This document shows, one piece after another, positions 5,438 to 61,642 of a DNA stretch of 64,000 nucleotides. How positions within the stretch are numbered: the first letter of the stretch is position 1; each line of letters begins with the position of its first letter. Both the position numbers and the translations under genes were made by a program. The DNA is from a virus (Duplodnaviria; Heunggongvirae; Uroviricota; Caudoviricetes). The stretch lies in IMG/VR virus record IMGVR_UViG_3300024272_000009; one strand, 5' to 3'. The notes beneath the pieces are model-generated. The model ran no database searches. It was not told where the DNA came from and was given only the letters and a program-made list of their open reading frames with translations.

Positions 5438-6199
5438 TTAGTTGCACAGATTAGTGTTTTCTATGATTGACTCATCTATAAGATAATCTAGCAATTCTTT
5501 CCAGCTTAAATTGTGATGATCGCCATGGTTAGCAGAGTTCAAGCCTAATTGTAAAGTATACTCTTTACCATCTTGGCGAAATGGTCCTATTATACGTACA
5601 CTTGTGCGGTAGCCAAAATCTACAGACGTTATAATTATATAAAGAAGCCTTGTTCCTAAATTTCTTACTTCGTATGTAGCGAGTTTATCGGCGTCTATTT
5701 GAGCAAGTAAGCTTTTAAATCGAGGCGTGTGGTCAAACCGGCCTAATGAATCTACACTAGGTTTATTAGAACTAGTAGAATTTACAGTAGTAGTTGTTTT
5801 ATTTCCATTAACGTAAACAAATTCATGTAAGGTATCTACTTCGTTAAAATTATTTTGTAGAGAATCTACACGACTACCGTCTACAAAGAAATCTGCGATA
5901 AAATCAGCATCTGCTCCAGTTACTTCTTTTCCTACCATAGACTCTAAACGACTTATTTCATCACCTGTAAGATCAAAGAGCTCCGCCACCTCTATATCAC
6001 AATCAAAGTTAGGCAATTGTGACATAGCTTTATTATAAATGTCTACTGCTTCTTTCTCACCGTCCGAGGTCAAGCCATGCACGTAATATTTATTTGGGAA
6101 GTCGCCTGTAAGTATGATATAACGATTTTCAGTTGACGAATTAGACGGAACTTCATCCCACATAGTTTCATAAAGTTTAAATTCTTCATGTAATTTCAT
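5438..6199 (-). CDS. Hypothetical protein with N-terminal leader MKLHEEFKLYETMW
   Basis: 253-aa ORF with SD; no family recognised. Confidence 0.7.
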   Translation of the reverse strand: MKLHEEFKLYETMWDEVPSNSSTENRYIILTGDFPNKYYVHGLTSDGEKEAVDIYNKAMSQLPNFDCDIEVAELFDLTGDEISRLESMVGKEVTGADADFIADFFVDGSRVDSLQNNFNEVDTLHEFVYVNGNKTTTTVNSTSSNKPSVDSLGRFDHTPRFKSLLAQIDADKLATYEVRNLGTRLLYIIITSVDFGYRTSVRIIGPFRQDGKEYTLQLGLNSANHGDHHNLSWKELLDYLIDESIIENTNLCN

Positions 6200-45066: not shown

Positions 45067-45849
45067 TTAGTCAGTCTCCTTATTTAAAAAATTATCTTCA
45101 ATTACCAAAACATTTACTTTTCCTGTATGAGCTGTGCACTTATCAATTCCGATAATTTTCCAGTCATCATTTTTGTAAATGTCCCAGCAAGCATTTTCGC
45201 CGAACTCACTAAGCTCTCCGTCGCTGCTAATTAAGTGTCCCAAAGAGCAATGCCAATGACCAAATACAATATATTTACCGGTCCTATTCATACCGTCCTG
45301 AGCCTTAAAGAACGGATTTCCCCACATAGCTTCTTCCCACTCATTTCTTGTAGCCTCACGCCAGTCTTCCTTATATTCATAATACTTATTAAGCGTATGC
45401 CAAGGCTTACTAGCACCTTCCGTAATAGTAGGAATCCAACTATGTACAAATATATAATTCTCAGTTTCAAAATAGTTTACAAGTGAAGCACGATAGGCGG
45501 CTGTTCTATTCCAAGTATTTCTACAGCAGTCATCAAAAGGGTAGCCTTCTCCCGCACCGCCAATGTCATTTACGGTACGAGTAGTACCGTTAGAAAAGTC
45601 ATGACTATAAGGAAATTCTCTCATACAAAGGTCATCAAGTAGAAGGTCATGATTACCTTTTACGAGAATCTTTCTTTCAAGTGACATGAGAAAATGAAGT
45701 ACTTCTTCGCTCTCATGGCCTCTATCAAAAGCATCACCGCAAGAAATTAACCAATGCTCTGGATTATTTCGGTCAAAGCCGGCCTCATCTAAAGCTTTCT
45801 TCAGTGCAGAGTAATAAGAATGTATATCTGAAACGCAGAAAAATTTCAT
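45067..45849 (-). CDS. Calcineurin-like metallophosphoesterase
   Basis: SDIHS, CGDAFDRG, GNHD, FVH, FGHWH. Confidence 0.93.
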   Translation of the reverse strand: MKFFCVSDIHSYYSALKKALDEAGFDRNNPEHWLISCGDAFDRGHESEEVLHFLMSLERKILVKGNHDLLLDDLCMREFPYSHDFSNGTTRTVNDIGGAGEGYPFDDCCRNTWNRTAAYRASLVNYFETENYIFVHSWIPTITEGASKPWHTLNKYYEYKEDWREATRNEWEEAMWGNPFFKAQDGMNRTGKYIVFGHWHCSLGHLISSDGELSEFGENACWDIYKNDDWKIIGIDKCTAHTGKVNVLVIEDNFLNKETD

Positions 45850-46400
45850 CTCTTTGCCTCCGTAATAAAGGTTGCACTCTCATCTGCAACGTGAAGAAGC
45901 CAAGCTAAAGGACAATGCTCAAAAGCAGGTCCGATATTAGGGTTATCTTCCCAAGAGCCCATATGGCAATTAATAGCAACTGCTTCTTCAGGAGTCAGCT
46001 TAATAAAGTTCTGAAGAATAAATACTGACTTACTCCCGTGTCCGCCATAATGTAGCTTTTCATTATGAGTATAAGCCTCGTAAGGCTCCCACTTACCGTT
46101 TTCATCCTTACGGTAGCGGGTCTCTTTCTCATACATATTTACTTTACAAAGATCATGGAAAAGAGCTACGATAGCAACGCTTTCTTCAGATACCTGAATC
46201 TCAGGATAAATTGTAAGTAGCTTTACAAGGGCGTCGTATACGTTCAAAGAGTGCTCTACAAGCCCACCTTCATAAGAGCCATGATACTTTGCACTCGCCG
46301 GTGCAGTAAAGAAATCACTACTCTCGAGCCATTCAAAAAGTTCTGCTTTGCCTGTACGATTAAACGTACAAAGTGAAATAAATCTTTCTCTATTTGTCAT
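45846..46400 (-). CDS. HD-domain phosphohydrolase
   Basis: YHG...GGLVEHS, LFHDLCK, GHG, HMG, HVAD. Confidence 0.9.
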   Translation of the reverse strand: MTNRERFISLCTFNRTGKAELFEWLESSDFFTAPASAKYHGSYEGGLVEHSLNVYDALVKLLTIYPEIQVSEESVAIVALFHDLCKVNMYEKETRYRKDENGKWEPYEAYTHNEKLHYGGHGSKSVFILQNFIKLTPEEAVAINCHMGSWEDNPNIGPAFEHCPLAWLLHVADESATFITEAKR

Positions 46401-47222
46401 TTAGTTCTCCTTAGGAAGAAATCTTTCAATATAGTTTCGGTCCTGTGTAAAAATAGGACACTCTTTGTCAATATACCATTCAGTTCTTGCTGCGCCGTTT
46501 ACTTCGATAGCTCTCTTATAACAGCAGATACCACGCTTAAACTCAATAGGCATATCATTGAAATTAATGCCTTTCTGCCAAAGCATTTCCTGAATCATAT
46601 CAGTCTTCTTTTTATGCAATTCATTATGATTAAAATAAGTCTGGCCAAGCATCTGAATTGCGTTTCGAGTAGCATCTTCTTGCCTCCACACAAAGCAATT
46701 CACAACTTCAGAAGCAGGAATATTAAAGCAGCGAGCATCAAACATCGCACCCTTATCACAACACTTCTTTAGTGCTTCAGAATATCTTTTAATAGGCTCC
46801 TCAAAGTAATGATTACACCACAAATCAGATTTATGATAATCATCTACAAGCATATTAAATGACTTATTGAAAATCATTGTTGCCATAGAAGCCGCAACAG
46901 AGCAGATCTTTTGCACGTTATAATCAAAGAAGGCATCAGTAGTCAGAGTATCATAGTCAGTCAACAGAAGCGAAATTTCATCACTCTGCGTATAACCAAA
47001 CTTACAACCCTGAATATTTTTACAAAGATACTGCAAAGTAGAGTTCATTGCCTTATGAAAAATCTCATCGTAAGGCTTTTGCAAATTACTAGTAAAGCTA
47101 TGGAAAGCCTTACCGTCCAAACGAATAATACAAGGCGTACGTCGTGTCAGATAAGTTTTACTACGATTCTCGTAGTTTTCTTTCATACGATCGCCAAGAG
47201 AATCTTTTTTATTATTTCCCAT
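46401..47222 (-). CDS. thg1: Thg1-like tRNA guanylyltransferase / 3'-5' polymerase
   Basis: IIRLDGKAFHSFT, YTQSDEISL, FDAR, WRQEDATRN. Confidence 0.93.
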   Translation of the reverse strand: MGNNKKDSLGDRMKENYENRSKTYLTRRTPCIIRLDGKAFHSFTSNLQKPYDEIFHKAMNSTLQYLCKNIQGCKFGYTQSDEISLLLTDYDTLTTDAFFDYNVQKICSVAASMATMIFNKSFNMLVDDYHKSDLWCNHYFEEPIKRYSEALKKCCDKGAMFDARCFNIPASEVVNCFVWRQEDATRNAIQMLGQTYFNHNELHKKKTDMIQEMLWQKGINFNDMPIEFKRGICCYKRAIEVNGAARTEWYIDKECPIFTQDRNYIERFLPKEN

Positions 47223-47255
47223 TATTATATTTCCTTTACTTTTTATTATAATATA

Positions 47256-47810
47256 TTATACAATATCAGGAATAGCAATCTTTAGCTCAGAAATAAGTTC
47301 ATAAAAATCTTCCCACGAAACTACTCTAAAGTCTGCAACAGAAGTATTTTTATTGTAAGGCGCGTCAAAAACTACTTTAATTCCTTTAAAATTTACTAAG
47401 TTATGTTCAGCGTCGTCAAGCAGAAGATCACAATTAATAAGTGATTTATTATATGTAATAATTATATTTTCTTTTTTTAAAAAAGGAAAATGAGCAAAAA
47501 GGCATTTGTCTAACTTATACGGAAGTGTTCTATAATGAGAACTGGTAATTATATAAACTTCATCACCTTCAGAAATAAGCTTTTCAATAACTTCAACAGC
47601 GCCAGACTTAATAGAAACTTCATCCCAATACTCTGGTGTGTTCAAAGGCTCAAACAGCTCACGTTTTGATAATGTTGGAAATACTTTTTCAAGTTCCCAC
47701 TCGACTATATCAGATAACTGTACACTAGTTCCGTGCTTTCTATTAAGCCACTCAACCCAAGTAATAAGCATATCATTGATTGTTCCGTCGAAATCAAGTC
47801 CAATTACCAT
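47256..47810 (-). CDS. 5'(3')-deoxyribonucleotidase (HAD, NT5C-like)
   Basis: LDFDGT, LLLDD, FDAPYN. Confidence 0.88.
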   Translation of the reverse strand: MVIGLDFDGTINDMLITWVEWLNRKHGTSVQLSDIVEWELEKVFPTLSKRELFEPLNTPEYWDEVSIKSGAVEVIEKLISEGDEVYIITSSHYRTLPYKLDKCLFAHFPFLKKENIIITYNKSLINCDLLLDDAEHNLVNFKGIKVVFDAPYNKNTSVADFRVVSWEDFYELISELKIAIPDIV

Positions 47811-47834: not shown

Positions 47835-47981
47835 TGGCCCACAACCCGGGATTCGAACCCAGATGATACACTCGTCAGCGCATCGCTGCTTCTCCGCGGT
47901 GCGTCTACACCAAAAGGACTTACAGTTAATTCTGCCTTTAGTCAGGACTTACATTTGTGTCGCCTGTTCCGCCAGTTGTAG
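47835..47981 (-). ncRNA. 147-nt tRNA-like RNA with an expanded core
   Basis: Acceptor CUACAAC/GUUGUGG + G + CCA; T arm CUGGG-UUCGAAU-CCCGG; D-like GCGGAACAGGCGACAC; ~94-nt interior with no clear anticodon arm. Confidence 0.55.
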
Positions 47982-48097
47982 ATATAGAAGCGGGGTGCCT
48001 TTACCTCAGCACCCCTTATAGAGGCCTCCCACCTAACCTCCATCGCAGTATGTCTCGTCTTCCTCGGCGATACCGAGCCTGCGCCCACGGCCATTAC

Positions 48098-48157
48098 TCA
48101 GCGTCCTGAGCAACCAATAATGTTGGGTGGAGTGTCCTCACAAATAACGAAGTACAT
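48098..48157 (-). CDS. Possible 19-aa micropeptide MYFVICEDTPPNIIGCSGR
   Basis: SD GGAG 9 nt upstream; not in the ORF track. Confidence 0.25.
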   Translation of the reverse strand: MYFVICEDTPPNIIGCSGR

Positions 48158-48192
48158 AAATAAGGTCTCCTTCCTCAAATAAAATATTTTGT

Positions 48193-48353
48193 AGGCTGTT
48201 CATCACACTCCATTTACCACAGCGCTTTTGACAATCCCGCAGAGGTTCCGCCCCGCTAAGTTTAAACGTGTTACACGGCCTGCTTGCACCCCGATTCATC
48301 CGGACATTTCGAGTGCCCTAGAGCTAACGGCTTAAGGATCCTTCGTGGCACCT
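48193..48353 (-). ncRNA. Scaffold-repeat unit 4 (161 nt)
   Basis: 5' AGGUGCCACGAAG ... GCUGUGGUAAAUGGAGUGUGAUGAACAGCCU 3'. Confidence 0.7.
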
Positions 48354-48463
48354 ACAATTAAATTGCTTGTTGCTGAGCACCCAAGCGAAGGTGAACGGGG
48401 AACTTCCCACGTCATTCGACTCAGCTGTATAAAATAAGGCTAGCTAATCCTACATTTTATACT

Positions 48464-48589
48464 AGGCTGTTCAACTCTCTCCATTTACCACAGCTTCTGC
48501 ATCCCGTCTTTCAGTCCCCGGCCGTGCTAGCTTCTTAGGCTGCTTTTGTTCCGGCTTACTAACTGAATCCATAGGGCTTCGTGGCACCC
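48464..48589 (-). ncRNA. Scaffold-repeat unit 3 (126 nt)
   Basis: 5' GGGUGCCACGAAG ... GCUGUGGUAAAUGGAGAGAGUUGAACAGCCU 3'. Confidence 0.7.
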
Positions 48590-48597
48590 CAAAAATC

Positions 48598-48740
48598 AGG
48601 CTGTTCATCAAACTCCATTTACCACTGCATTTTGTCGCCTCACAGAGCTTTATCTCGTTGACGGATTGGTTACCTTGTAAAACAACGAGCTAACTTCATC
48701 AAGAAGTATTCACTCCCAAGTTATTGGCATCGTGGCACCT
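48598..48740 (-). ncRNA. Scaffold-repeat unit 2 (143 nt)
   Basis: 5' AGGUGCCACGAUG ... GCAGUGGUAAAUGGAGUUUGAUGAACAGCCU 3'. Confidence 0.7.
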
Positions 48741-48751
48741 CTAAACATATC

Positions 48752-48852
48752 AGGCTGTTTATCGCATTCCATTTACCACTGCTTCTGAATCTTATTGGTA
48801 CCCGGTATGACCCATAATCAATCATCCGACCAAGCTAAGCTTCGTGGCACCT
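48752..48852 (-). ncRNA. Scaffold-repeat unit 1 (101 nt)
   Basis: 5' AGGUGCCACGAAG ... GCAGUGGUAAAUGGAAUGCGAUAAACAGCCU 3'. Confidence 0.7.
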
Positions 48853-48870
48853 GATATTATATAATACGAT
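48853..48870 (-). promoter_or_regulatory. -10 promoter directly upstream of the repeat array
   Basis: CGTATTATATAAT-ATC-AGGTGCC; predicted +1 falls at the conserved 5' motif. Confidence 0.65.
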
Positions 48871-49140
48871 TTATTGATCGTATTTTTCAAAGTGATCCCA
48901 ATCTTTTTTCCACTTTTTGGAATATTTGTCAAGAATCTGCTCTACTACACAGGCATTACACTGCTCCACACTCACGGGATCAACTACATACCAATCATCA
49001 CCAAGAAGATAGCTGGTAAGTATATCAAGAGCTTCCTGAGCGTTCATTGGTGCAGGGCAAAGACCGTAAGACGTATCGCAGATATTATTCTTTATGGCTT
49101 CAAAGCCTTCATTATACCTGTATTCTTTCTTAGTCTTCAT
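48871..49140 (-). CDS. Hypothetical protein
   Basis: Coupled ORF with SD. Confidence 0.75.
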   Translation of the reverse strand: MKTKKEYRYNEGFEAIKNNICDTSYGLCPAPMNAQEALDILTSYLLGDDWYVVDPVSVEQCNACVVEQILDKYSKKWKKDWDHFEKYDQ

Positions 49141-49974: not shown

Positions 49975-50330
49975 ACGGTAGCATACCTCTTTTTATGGTC
50001 TCTGTTTAGAGCCAAGTTTGCATTAGTAATATCAAGAATTTCATCCCAGCGAGAAGCACCCTCACGGAAGTGCATAATACCAGGTTTATGTTTAAGCTGG
50101 TCAATAATTCCCAATGACTGATTTAGAGTCATCATATCATTATAGCCCATAGGCGGAAGGTCAGGAAATCTGAGATTCTGACACAGAAAATTAAGTTGTT
50201 CGGTCATAGTAATTCTCAAAGTAGTCGCCGGTGTTTCAACGTCAATAAAATGATCTTCAGACATATACAGATATCTATACAAAGTACAAATATCATTAAA
50301 ATCTGTCAATAGAGTATCTATCGTTCTCAT
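49971..50330 (-). CDS. Hypothetical protein
   Basis: Coupled ORF. Confidence 0.7.
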   Translation of the reverse strand: MRTIDTLLTDFNDICTLYRYLYMSEDHFIDVETPATTLRITMTEQLNFLCQNLRFPDLPPMGYNDMMTLNQSLGIIDQLKHKPGIMHFREGASRWDEILDITNANLALNRDHKKRYATV

Positions 50331-50875
50331 ATAATAATCTCCTTGCGATAATCTTTACTTTTTCTGTCCCAAAACGATCCACCGTGACCTACGTCTCTCA
50401 TATAAAGTTTCTCAAAAGTAAAGAAATCTGCCTCGTTAAAGCCGCCATGAGCGTCAACAGTCTGAATAAAATGTTCTCTTTGTACGTCATTAATTGGCAC
50501 ATTCTCATCATCTAGGATCATAAAATAGTTAATTTCAGGATGCTCGTCAAGATATTTCTGAATCTCATGACCGCGAGACCAACCTTCTGATACCTCAAGA
50601 TGCTCTGTCTTACCAAGAATTTCAATACCCTCTCTGAGACCACCATTAATAAGGCATTCCTTGTAGTTTTTATCTCTACGCCAAGTAGAAGTAACTACAA
50701 TATCATAATGAAATTTCTGGCAAGCCTCAGATAGCCACTGTACTGCTTGAAAATTATTTACTTTTCCGTGGCTCGGCCAATTGTAATTACAGTGGGTACC
50801 CTTCTCATTCCACATAGGAGTATTCACGACACCATCATAATCAAGAAATATTACTCTAGAATTCACTTTATACAC
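50327..50875 (-). CDS. HAD phosphatase, Swiss-Army-Knife RNA-repair-like
   Basis: IFLDYDGV, VVTSTWR, RG.EI..YL, ILDDE. Confidence 0.82.
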   Translation of the reverse strand: MYKVNSRVIFLDYDGVVNTPMWNEKGTHCNYNWPSHGKVNNFQAVQWLSEACQKFHYDIVVTSTWRRDKNYKECLINGGLREGIEILGKTEHLEVSEGWSRGHEIQKYLDEHPEINYFMILDDENVPINDVQREHFIQTVDAHGGFNEADFFTFEKLYMRDVGHGGSFWDRKSKDYRKEIII

Positions 50876-58194: not shown

Positions 58195-58769
58195 TTACTA
58201 TATTTCCTCCAGCAAGCATAGCAGAATGCTCTGTATTTATCATTTCCGCCAATATCAACTTGATCGCCCTCTGTTACTATACTACCATCTTTAATACGTG
58301 CATTAATAACAGCAAAGTTACCGCAGTCACATATAACTGGAATATCTTTAATAATACTTGCAAGCTCAAATAATCTTTTAGAGCCCTCAAACAAATGAGA
58401 GGTAAAGTCCGTTCTTAAACCATAACAGAGCACCTGAATATCTTTTTCATCAGCAAGAATCTTAAGTTCTTCTACCTGTGCTTTTGTAAGAAACTGTGCT
58501 TCATCACATATAACAGTATTAGTTCCTTCTGGCGGAACTAACTTGTCAGTAGCACTGATTGCATCAGCCCAAGCGCTAATTCCAACCCTGGACCTAATTA
58601 ATGTTTTAATTGCTTTACCATTGTCATACTGCATTTCTTCTCTGGTGTCAATCTCAGGCTTAATCAACCAAACATTCTTACCTTTTTCAGTATATTGAAA
58701 ATTTGTCATTAGAGCATGAGCTGTTTTAGAACTGCCCATAGGGCCTGTATAAAAAATTAGCTCTGCCAT
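58191..58769 (-). CDS. tdk: Thymidine kinase
   Basis: GPMGSSKT, SRVG, DEAQF, YGLRTDF, LFEGS, CDC...CYAC. Confidence 0.95.
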   Translation of the reverse strand: MAELIFYTGPMGSSKTAHALMTNFQYTEKGKNVWLIKPEIDTREEMQYDNGKAIKTLIRSRVGISAWADAISATDKLVPPEGTNTVICDEAQFLTKAQVEELKILADEKDIQVLCYGLRTDFTSHLFEGSKRLFELASIIKDIPVICDCGNFAVINARIKDGSIVTEGDQVDIGGNDKYRAFCYACWRKYSK

Positions 58770-59338
58770 TAAATCTCCTTCTTATCTTCAATAGCCGCAA
58801 CTGCTGTTGCATTCAAAGTTCTAATTACATACAAACCACACTGAGTTGCTGCGTCCTCGAACCACATTGAATCATAAGGCTTTCTTTCTTTAACAGGCTT
58901 TGCATTACGTGTATGGTACCAGGTTACCGAGGGCAGACCAACAATAAATGGAAATAGTGGACCAAACAAGCAATTTTGGAAAGTATGACCAAATTCATGA
59001 GCATCAAGAGCACCACGAGACTTATGGTCTCTCAAGAAACAAAGACCGCACTCAAAGCCTCCCCAAGAGTCAGGACCAACAGAAATGCTATAAATCCAAT
59101 GATAAGGCTTAAAAGTGATCTTTACCTTTCCGAACGAGCACAGCTTTACTAGATAAAGCGCTCCTGAAATAACTGCGCCAACCAAGGTCATGATAAAGCC
59201 CCAAGTGCAAGCAAGAATATAGTATAGTTTTTGATGTTTCACAAGGAACTTAGTCCAAATAGCACACAAATTAAATAAAAATGTTCCAGCCTTAGTGTGC
59301 TGATAGGCTGCTTTGATTTCTGGAATAGGGGTAGTCAA
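58769..59338 (-). CDS. Membrane protein with a HEXXH zincin motif
   Basis: TM segments, HEFGH..Q, WFE. Confidence 0.7.
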   Translation of the reverse strand: MTTPIPEIKAAYQHTKAGTFLFNLCAIWTKFLVKHQKLYYILACTWGFIMTLVGAVISGALYLVKLCSFGKVKITFKPYHWIYSISVGPDSWGGFECGLCFLRDHKSRGALDAHEFGHTFQNCLFGPLFPFIVGLPSVTWYHTRNAKPVKERKPYDSMWFEDAATQCGLYVIRTLNATAVAAIEDKKEI

Positions 59339-59595: not shown

Positions 59596-59958
59596 ACCTA
59601 GCTAAATACTATTTGATGTGGATTACGACAGTCAGCCAGGACGACTGATAATCGTCTCCACGCATTACCTTCTTTAAGAAATAAGCATAGGTTCTAGAAA
59701 AAATAGGCTCGACTATTTATGTATGCCAGGCTACCTCTATATTCCAGAAGGATATATAGATACCCGGCCGAAGTCTTTTGTTAGTATTAGAAATAAGTAC
59801 GAGCTCTTTTTAATTTAGCAAATAAAATTTGGCCTAACTGTCTTTACTATTTACCCTTTTAAATATCATAAGAAATAAGTATAGGCTCTATTTTATATAA
59901 TTGGCTTGGCTACTTTACTAAATATCAATTATATTTCAAAGAAATAAGCACAAGCTCT
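59596..59958 (-). repeat. Four-unit structured RNA repeat (AGARCYYRTRCTTATTTCT plus a co-varying 3' arm)
   Basis: 19-mers at 59940-59958, 59871-59889, 59789-59807 and 59677-59695, each with a compensatory downstream partner strand. Confidence 0.75.
59812..59820 (-). promoter_or_regulatory. Putative late promoter TGCTAAATT inside the repeat array
   Basis: Motif between repeat units 2 and 3. Confidence 0.5.
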
Positions 59959-61452: not shown

Positions 61453-61642
61453 TGGTCGCTAAGGAAGGACTCACACCTTCTTTTAAACTCATCATTGAAT
61501 AGTTCCGTAGAGTTTTTCATCTAGTTATTATTTTGATTCCAGTAGATAGTTTTCTATTCTACTCGAGATACCTTCGAACTTATCTACAACGTTGTCACAG
61601 GTTATGATGCCTGCCGAGCTCGATTCTTTGCCCTTCTTAGCA
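61453..61642 (-). ncRNA. 190-nt tRNA-like RNA with a giant variable region
   Basis: Acceptor UGCUAAG/CUUAGCG + A + CCA; D stem GGGC/GCUC; anticodon stem GCAGG/CCUGU with 8-nt loop CAUCAUAA; ~116-nt insert; T arm GAAGG-UGUGAGU-CCUUC. Confidence 0.65.

Follow-up and report, generated by a model that had tools for sequence, protein, structure and literature searches.

The window analysed here, a 64,000-nucleotide (nt) stretch of the Caudoviricetes record IMGVR_UViG_3300024272_000009 corresponding to bases 64001-128000 of a 220-kilobase (kb) phage genome, carries an array of four related units on its minus strand (48857-48189). Each unit consists of a pair of conserved ends, referred to below as the handle, placed around an interior (the insert) that is unrelated from one unit to the next. 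Three helices of the handle RNA are supported by covariation, and the family to which the units belong is widespread in large gut and rumen phages of several unrelated lineages. The family is apparently uncatalogued, being absent from Rfam and, within the reach of our searches, from the literature. Our preferred interpretation, which we put forward tentatively and at a little under an even chance, is that the four units are paralogous, stable, non-coding small RNAs made from transfer RNA (tRNA)-type operons, and that their invariant junction would dock one conserved and probably host-encoded factor.

The four-unit array and its handle

The 5' motif GGTGCCACGA is present in exactly four copies on the minus strand (48851-48842, 48739-48730, 48588-48579 and 48352-48343), as is the 3' motif GTGGTAAATGGA (48779-48768, 48625-48614, 48491-48480 and 48220-48209). 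Beyond these, neither the window nor the 220-kb genome contains an exact copy of either motif. Along the minus strand, every unit starts with GGUGCCACGA and finishes with GUGGUAAAUGGA, followed by 7 nt and RAACAGCCU. This confirms an earlier note on this DNA, which had described four copies of each motif as a scaffold around unrelated interiors, and around 100 further copies have been found in other phages. The spacer within the 3' motif, given in that note as 6 nt, is in fact 7 nt long between UGGA and RAACAG, and is itself conserved (R-U-K-N-R-A-U). Apart from two short spurious ones, the array stretch contains no open reading frame (ORF) of 40 amino acids (aa) or more.

A whole-genome search with a covariance model of the family (model R1) recovered these four units and no other convincing match. 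Unit 1 (48747-48857, minus strand, as are the other three; core 48849-48755, 56-nt insert) scores 83.9 bits against the model, with an expectation value (E) of 1.7e-19. Its outer helix, P1, is formed by AUAUCAGG (48857-48850) pairing with CCUGAUAU (48754-48747); the orthologous unit in L009 (1666-1760), one of the loci from the closest phages (L005-L009), has an almost unchanged insert and a P1 swapped for GUGAG/CUCAC. Unit 2 (48598-48740; core 48737-48601, 98-nt insert; 52.8 bits and E 6e-11 in the whole-genome search) has a P1 of only AGG/CCU and reads CGAUGC in its 5' motif and GCAGUGG in its 3' motif, and a similar unit is held by L073. The P1 of unit 3 (48463-48590; core 48586-48467, 81-nt insert; 57.1 bits, E 1.4e-12) is a short GG(G)/CC(U), and its insert is like that of unit 1 in L007. 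Unit 4 (48189-48357; core 48350-48196, 116-nt insert; 60.6 bits, E 1.7e-13) closes with UUGUAGG (48357-48351) pairing with CCUACAA (48195-48189), and its insert type, GGAUC...AAAUAGC, recurs in L005, L052 and L100. The units had been described as tandem; all four are present, but units 3 and 4 are not adjacent, as a separate 111-nt RNA (48463-48353) lies between them.

Across the family, the handle has a consensus of about 45 nt within RNAs of about 90-190 nt. It begins with P1, a helix of 5-11 base pairs (bp) of any sequence that closes with G-C, G-C, and is followed by a U. The almost invariant P2 (GCYAC/GURGU) comes next, its 5' strand leading into a GA(A) bulge, the 5' strand of P3 (GC), a helix of 2 bp, and a variable arm of 30-130 nt. 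On the 3' side, the arm is followed by a conserved AGNA, the P3 strand GC, W and the P2 strand GURGU. Between P2 and P1 on this side lies an almost invariant, purine-rich segment of 19 nt, AAAUGGA-RUKNRAU-RAACA, and then (G) and the 3' strand of P1. P1 is continuous with P2 on the 5' strand, and only the 3' strand bears the 19-nt insertion. No canonical K-turn was found in the handle by inspection.

The pairing of the unit ends reported in the earlier note proved to be real, with GCCAC/GUGGU in all four units and the outer helix formed by AUAUCAGG/CCUGAUAU in unit 1 and UUGUAGG/CCUACAA in unit 4. In the L005-L009 arrays P1 has been rewritten yet remains paired (GUGAG/CUCAC, GUAGG/CCUAC and an 11-bp AAAUUUAAUAG/CUAUUAAAUUU), and P2 alternates between GCCAC/GUGGU and GCUAC/GUAGU. 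Covariation was scored on an alignment of 38 sequences made with MAFFT (A1), using 500 shuffles and slid partners as controls. In this alignment 89% of cells are paired and the score is 0.397, against a shuffled mean of 0.137; 0/500 shuffles reach the observed value and the slid controls stay at or below 0.128. A second alignment (A2), of the 84 distinct sequences found by model R1, gave 93% of cells paired and a score of 0.414 versus 0.137 when shuffled. As A2 is fitted to the model, A1 is the cleaner test of the two. RNAalifold, unaided, recovered the same three helices.

The Y:R pair of P2 is U-A in 52 sequences, C-G in 28 and A-U in 1, and an invariant G.U pair in this helix is compatible with the minus-strand RNA only. 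The change from AGC/GCU to UGC/GCA, previously taken as co-variation, is weak when followed across the family (A-U 19, A.A 18). Folded singly, the four units are thermodynamically no better than shuffled sequences (z -0.6 to +2.0), so the evidence for structure is comparative rather than thermodynamic.

Covariation is also seen inside the 19-nt strand, where positions 13 and 20 are G/G in 56 cases and A/A in 26, with 8 exceptions (5 of them A/G). The mutual information of this purine-purine pair (R13/R20) is 0.65, the same as that of the P2 base pair. U9-A24 and G10-C23 could pair, one copy has U in place of A12 opposite A21, and divergent copies vary in loop length while keeping AAAUGG and GAACAG. 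From these features we infer that the segment may fold into a non-canonical mini-hairpin (U-A, G-C, G.A, A.A and R.R, closed by a 6-nt loop); on this fold the handle would be a three-way junction.

The 19-nt strand has also been read as protein. According to the earlier note each 3' motif could encode a micropeptide, MExDEQP, and in support of this the AUG in AAAUGGA is invariant and M-E-x-x-(K/E)-Q-P is read from all four local copies. Over 90 family members, however, the commonest reading of this frame is ME*DEQP, and an in-frame TGA stands at codon 3 in 31/90; no suppressor tRNA is present in the window, and the frame has no Shine-Dalgarno (SD) sequence. The residues after Q track the covarying outer helix, the 'Pro' codon consisting of the first P1 pairs (CCU, CUC, CUA, CCG and others), and the G/A changes that look synonymous come from the correlated R13/R20 pair described above. 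The local frames stop after 12-20 codons. We give the micropeptide next to no chance and, judging by these frames, the units are non-coding.

Distribution, tRNA context and variable arms

A scan of IMG/VR contigs with the 3' pattern, using the corrected spacing, matched at least 116 stretches. Among the matches listed, 96 are distinct. In 81 of these the 5' motif is found at 50-145 nt upstream, and the other 15 resemble chance occurrences in coding DNA. Building a covariance model and searching phage sequences with it, as had been suggested, gave 122 copies (84 distinct) in 100 loci. Complete carrier genomes (n=11) hold 1-2 copies each, which makes the four-unit array of this phage unusual. 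Core genes are common to this phage and only 4/11 of these genomes, and the RNA therefore crosses phage lineages.

The family was also found in a collection of species genomes, where 20 of the first 100 pattern loci listed are strong model matches (E <=1e-9). All 20 lie on contigs of metagenome-assembled genomes (MAGs) binned as Clostridia, Christensenellaceae, Bacilli, Acholeplasmatales and Bacteroidales. These MAGs come from the guts of sheep, goat, rabbit, mouse and human, and many of the contigs are of phage-genome size. The other pattern matches in this collection are about as numerous as expected by chance.

Searches of GenBank phages by blastn, with the array and with a consensus-like unit, gave no match. 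The four units matched nothing in Rfam 15 at the gathering score (in the window, only tRNAs did) and nothing overlapping them at E up to 10, which bears out the initial impression that no Rfam family corresponds to them. Around 12 units from eight other loci likewise had no overlapping match at E up to 5. As far as the literature was searched, the handle motif was not found in it and nothing relevant was found on RNAs of tRNA arrays. One literature match, to GTAGTAAATGGA, was rejected as a chance occurrence in a Lactobacillus read.

Genomic context was counted for 77 loci comprising 91 units. A tRNA gene lies within 1 kb of 64/91 units and is on the same strand in 64/64 cases; where a locus has a tRNA call, the median distance to the nearest tRNA is 278 nt. 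Some units start 6-17 nt past the CCA end of a tRNA, or stop 11-20 nt before the next one, suggesting that unit ends are probably set by tRNA processing. In the window the tRNA array is found at 59.4-63.9 kb on the same strand, and the four-unit array stands apart from it behind its own promoter-like site. Model R1 has no match at two sites within this tRNA island (59596-59958 and 61453-61642, minus strand), which are thus assigned to different families. In a separate observation, at L135 (117-349) two over-long tRNA-like genes (118 and 109 nt) directly follow a family member, and both are covered by a YrlA match that is weak, at 27 bits, and does not reach the gathering score.

The inserts are extremely diverse, with 73 sequence classes among 95 distinct units. 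No shared motif is enriched in them across the family, and this includes UUAGC, which is present in all four local units. Orthologous inserts are conserved with compensatory changes (L068/L123/L124, L110/L127, and local unit 1 with unit 1 of L009), which argues that they are selected and are not filler. When compared with their own genome, the four local inserts show complementarity and identity at chance level only. Against tRNAs, at E <=0.01, 2/95 inserts match: that of L072 in the sense direction over the T-arm region, and that of L055 as a 14-nt antisense. The proposal of guide-like RNAs is not sustained, given that the interiors match nothing in the phage genome beyond chance and match tRNAs in 2/95 units only. 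The L072 insert (5576-5655), the sole sense tRNA match among inserts, contains a T-arm-like hairpin, AUAGG-UUUGAAU-CCUAU.

The array had further been seen as a carrier of interchangeable cargo. A scaffold with unrelated interiors is indeed what the family presents, but the array form is atypical, as complete carriers have 1-2 copies and most loci lie among tRNA genes. We agree that it is not CRISPR: two different motifs pair across the variable part, the inserts are about 30-130 nt long, and each complete carrier has 1-2 copies.

It seems plausible that the handle RNAs are transcribed together with tRNAs or, in this phage and its closest relatives, instead from a promoter of their own downstream of a Tad8-like gene. 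They may be freed by the nucleases that mature the flanking tRNAs, or through cleavage within AU-rich linkers, after which P1 would clamp and protect both RNA ends. The invariant junction would then act as the docking site for one conserved trans-acting factor, with the hypervariable arm providing a lineage- or paralogue-specific function. That the sequence is almost invariant across phages without shared core genes suggests a conserved interaction, the other party to which is probably the host cell; given that the RNA has no phage protein accompanying it, the docking factor is probably encoded by the host.

Several results weigh against this interpretation. A small ribozyme or a ligand-binding aptamer whose peripheral stem is dispensable would equally well present a near-invariant core and a single variable arm. 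As a class, the inserts fold no better than shuffles (mean z -0.18, p 0.18), so that structured cargo is not general. The mini-hairpin is proposed from invariant bases and one purine-purine covariation, and no binding partner was found among phage-encoded proteins.

The main rival explanation, which we regard as rather unlikely, is that the conserved junction is itself active, as a small ribozyme (for example, one self-processing in tRNA-array transcripts), an aptamer or a tRNA-binding module, the insert being a dispensable peripheral stem. Unpaired positions are invariant, yet the length of one arm ranges over 30-130 nt, copy number is housekeeping-like at 1-2 per genome, and the inserts as a class are neither significantly structured nor united by a common motif, all of which would suit an active junction; the hepatitis delta virus (HDV)-like theta ribozymes found beside phage tRNAs offer a precedent (PMC10879173). 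Contrary to this, no Rfam ribozyme or riboswitch model matches, even at E up to 10, and only nested helices are supported, with no HDV-type pseudoknot. The conservation of orthologous inserts with compensatory changes also implies that they are not neutral filler, and the tandem units here have no conserved nucleotide at their boundaries. The hammerhead, hairpin, twister, pistol, hatchet and HDV ribozymes, as specific candidates, found no Rfam support and have cores that misfit by eye.

Partner search and surroundings of the array

A consistently co-occurring protein gene, which the earlier note had suggested looking for, did not emerge from either of two approaches. Clustering of neighbouring proteins over the 77 loci placed the commonest family in 9/77 only, and tblastn of the 564 ORFs of this genome against the 11 complete carriers found nothing common to more than 7. 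A metallophosphatase is encoded in 7/11 of these carrier genomes, and other genes of the repair neighbourhood described below in 5 or fewer. Neither RtcB nor an L7Ae-type (K-turn-binding) protein is encoded in this genome.

By analogy with Y RNAs, the partner could instead be a Ro60-like ring protein, in the form of phage DUF2828, phage TROVE or host Rsr. The architecture of a handle with a variable body is the same, and the 5' strand YACGAAG lies near both GNCGAAN0-1G, proposed as the Rsr-binding motif in bacterial Y RNAs, and the vertebrate GGUCCGA (PMC4201824); agreement with the bacterial motif extends to 6/7 positions, the first G being C or U in the units. The genes for YrlA and other bacterial Y RNAs lie no more than about 4 kb from a gene for Ro60/TROVE and share its strand (PMC4201824), and DUF2828/DUF7788 genes occur within 4 kb of the handle RNA at 6/77 loci. 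However, TROVE is absent from this genome and from 31 carrier genomes (0/31), this genome is also without DUF2828, and DUF2828 is present in 5/31 carriers compared to 17/34 Thg1-bearing control phages (only 2 of those carry the RNA). The Rfam YrlA model matches no unit, and the inserts are not tRNA-like. A Ro60-like partner encoded by the phage was rejected, as neither TROVE nor DUF2828 is present here and DUF2828 is no commoner in carriers than in controls; the Y-RNA-type reading as a whole appears very unlikely, though a host Rsr may yet be a partner given the likeness of the 5' strand to its proposed motif.

The gene directly upstream of the array (48871-49140, minus strand) encodes a Tad8-like protein, matching the type II Thoeris inhibitor Tad8 (Pfam PF25189, E 4.5e-23). 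A promoter-like site (48861-48890, minus strand) adjoins the stop of this gene on its 3' side and consists of a -35 TTGAAA (48890-48885), an 18-nt spacer and a -10 TATTAT (48866-48861), with 10/12 matches. A TATAAT at 48861-48856 had been put forward as the promoter element: a -10 box before the array is conserved here and in three related phages, but the best fit to the 5' end of the outer helix is the overlapping TATTAT. The TATTATATAAT box seen here likewise precedes unit 1 in L007 and L009. In the closest phages, L005-L009, whose loci were found via relatives of the Thg1-like gene, the order is Tad8-like gene, terminator hairpin, TATTATATAAT box and 4-5 units. The arrays of L007 and L009 have 5 units and, with the 4-unit array here, are the largest seen.

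NT5C, Thg1-like, HD and metallophosphatase genes lie downstream of the array, with HAD_SAK_2 nearby. These belong to what resembles an RNA/nucleotide repair-type cluster (45067-47810 and 50327-50875, minus strand), comprising NT5C, a Thg1-like 3'-5' polymerase, HD, a calcineurin-like phosphoesterase and HAD_SAK_2; a Pnkp-like kinase and RNA ligases are encoded elsewhere in the same genome.

Such a neighbourhood is relevant to another explanation, in which the RNA would be an anti-defence decoy or sponge that titrates or misleads a host nuclease directed at RNA, such as a type III toxin or an anticodon nuclease acting on tRNA, with arm variation reflecting an arms race. The position of the RNA in tRNA arrays and the invariant AAAU of its 3' strand are consistent with this, as are the extreme turnover of inserts (73 classes in 95 units) and the placement of the array directly after a Tad8-like anti-Thoeris gene and near the Thg1-like, HD, metallophosphatase and HAD_SAK_2 RNA-repair genes. 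That said, inserts are tRNA-like in only 2/95 cases, the RNA-repair neighbourhood is not general (metallophosphatase in 7/11 carriers, the others in 5 or fewer), and the array has neither ToxI-like repeat regularity nor a toxin gene downstream. On balance, we find a decoy role unlikely.

Type III antitoxins of the ToxI kind are made up of tandem, near-identical repeats of 34-45 nt directly upstream of an endoribonuclease toxin gene. The array was rejected as a member of this class, its units being 95-155 nt long with unrelated interiors and the genes downstream being NT5C and Thg1-like.

Additional RNA elements were seen around the units. The 111-nt spacer RNA between units 3 and 4 (48353-48463, minus strand), which is outside the family, has a minimum free energy of -33.5 kcal/mol (z -3.38; 0/200 shuffles fold as well) and no Rfam match; L007 (about 1460-1500) and L009 (about 2060-2100) both retain its core, ACGUGGGAAGUUCCC...CUUCGCUUGG. 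Downstream of the units, the rest of the ORF-poor RNA region (47835-48188, minus strand), also outside the family, contains a micro-ORF, a hairpin/terminator-like site (48015-47992) and a tRNA-like RNA. The micro-ORF (48157-48098, minus strand), downstream of unit 4, is preceded by a good SD sequence, GGAGA, at a spacing of 8 nt and is 14-19 codons long across phages. Equivalents in L009 (2251-2304) and L007 (about 1651-1695) share with it the core (I/F)CEDTPP(N/V), kept in three phages, and the changes are synonymous (GAC/GAU, CCA/CCG, CCC/CCU). Based on this pattern, it looks like a genuinely translated small peptide.

The tRNA-like RNA (47981-47835, minus strand), 147 nt long, has a T arm of canonical form, and its GCCA end is encoded. 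Covariation is seen between its acceptor stem and that of a counterpart in L009 (2798-2930), the stems being CUACAAC/GUUGUGG here and CCAAGGC/GCCUUGG there; neither ARAGORN nor Rfam calls this RNA. A short frame inside it, G(D/N)TN(V/I)SPD-stop, is preserved through synonymous changes and recalls the tag frame of transfer-messenger RNA (tmRNA). A mini tRNA-like element of about 65 nt, absent from the window, follows the fifth unit in L009 (2727-2790) and L007 (about 2220-2285), with an acceptor formed by GGGUCAUU/AAUGACCC, a T arm of AUGAG-UUCAAAU-CUCAU and a shortened middle. Further away, a 189-aa ORF with an HEFGH motif lies directly downstream of the tRNA array (58769-59338, minus strand); its product and one other are the proteins of this phage with the widest occurrence in other carriers (7/11 complete genomes).

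The non-tRNA RNAs in the kilobase-scale tRNA islands of large phages are almost entirely unexplained, and the present family makes a workable entry point: it has a consensus some 45 nt long, three helices that covary and a purine-purine covariation of a rare kind, a covariance model that works, over 80 distinct natural variants and a promoter-led array of 4-5 units. Naming its partner would reveal roles of phage tRNA islands beyond codon supply. A bolder possibility, to which we attach a low probability, is that the three-way-junction handle is a new RNA module, be it a small ribozyme of a new class or a universal adaptor to a host tRNA-processing or RNA-quality-control machine, which unrelated large phages would exchange to feed arbitrary inserts into it. 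The family also merits an Rfam entry, so that regions of this type are no longer mistaken for junk or micro-ORFs.

Comparison with known systems

The units are not tRNA or tmRNA, as ARAGORN and Rfam find no cloverleaf or tRNA-like domain in 48189-48857. Among phage RNAs, the species 1 and 2 RNAs of phage T4 (rnaC/rnaD) are small, stable, non-tRNA RNAs encoded in the phage tRNA cluster. Like these, the family consists of small phage RNAs packed between same-strand tRNA genes and presumably released by tRNA processing. It differs in having an invariant handle and a hypervariable arm, in its presence in several unrelated lineages of gut and rumen phages, and in its lack of similarity to any GenBank phage record.

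GOLLD and ROOL, for which Rfam models exist, each form one RNA of 500-800 nt (PMC12286853). They too are phage- or prophage-borne RNAs of unknown function that are often found near tRNA genes, whereas the units described here form individual RNAs, 90-190 nt in length, that are each closed by a helix of their own and do not match GOLLD or ROOL. A closer likeness in size and setting is found in the theta HDV-like ribozymes, small ribozymes that lie beside gut-phage tRNAs (Kienbeck et al. 2024, PMC10879173) and that are, like the family, small conserved structured gut-phage RNAs directly next to tRNA genes. The family shows no nested double pseudoknot of the HDV type and matches no Rfam model of that type or of any ribozyme; compared by sequence alone, only nested helices covary.

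Y RNAs, including YrlA (RF02553), and their partner Ro60 provide the remaining comparison (Chen et al. 2014, PMC4201824). Paired ends beside a conserved motif, a variable body and the possibility of tandem paralogues are common to both systems. The family is without a Ro60/TROVE gene in this phage or in the 31 carriers and without a match to RF02553, and neither ARAGORN nor the Rfam tRNA model detects in its units the YrlA-type tRNA-like domain (D-/T-arm mimics). Conversely, the conserved 19-nt 3' strand of the family is missing from Y RNAs. The proposed handle and arm would work in the manner of Y RNAs and other scaffold RNAs.

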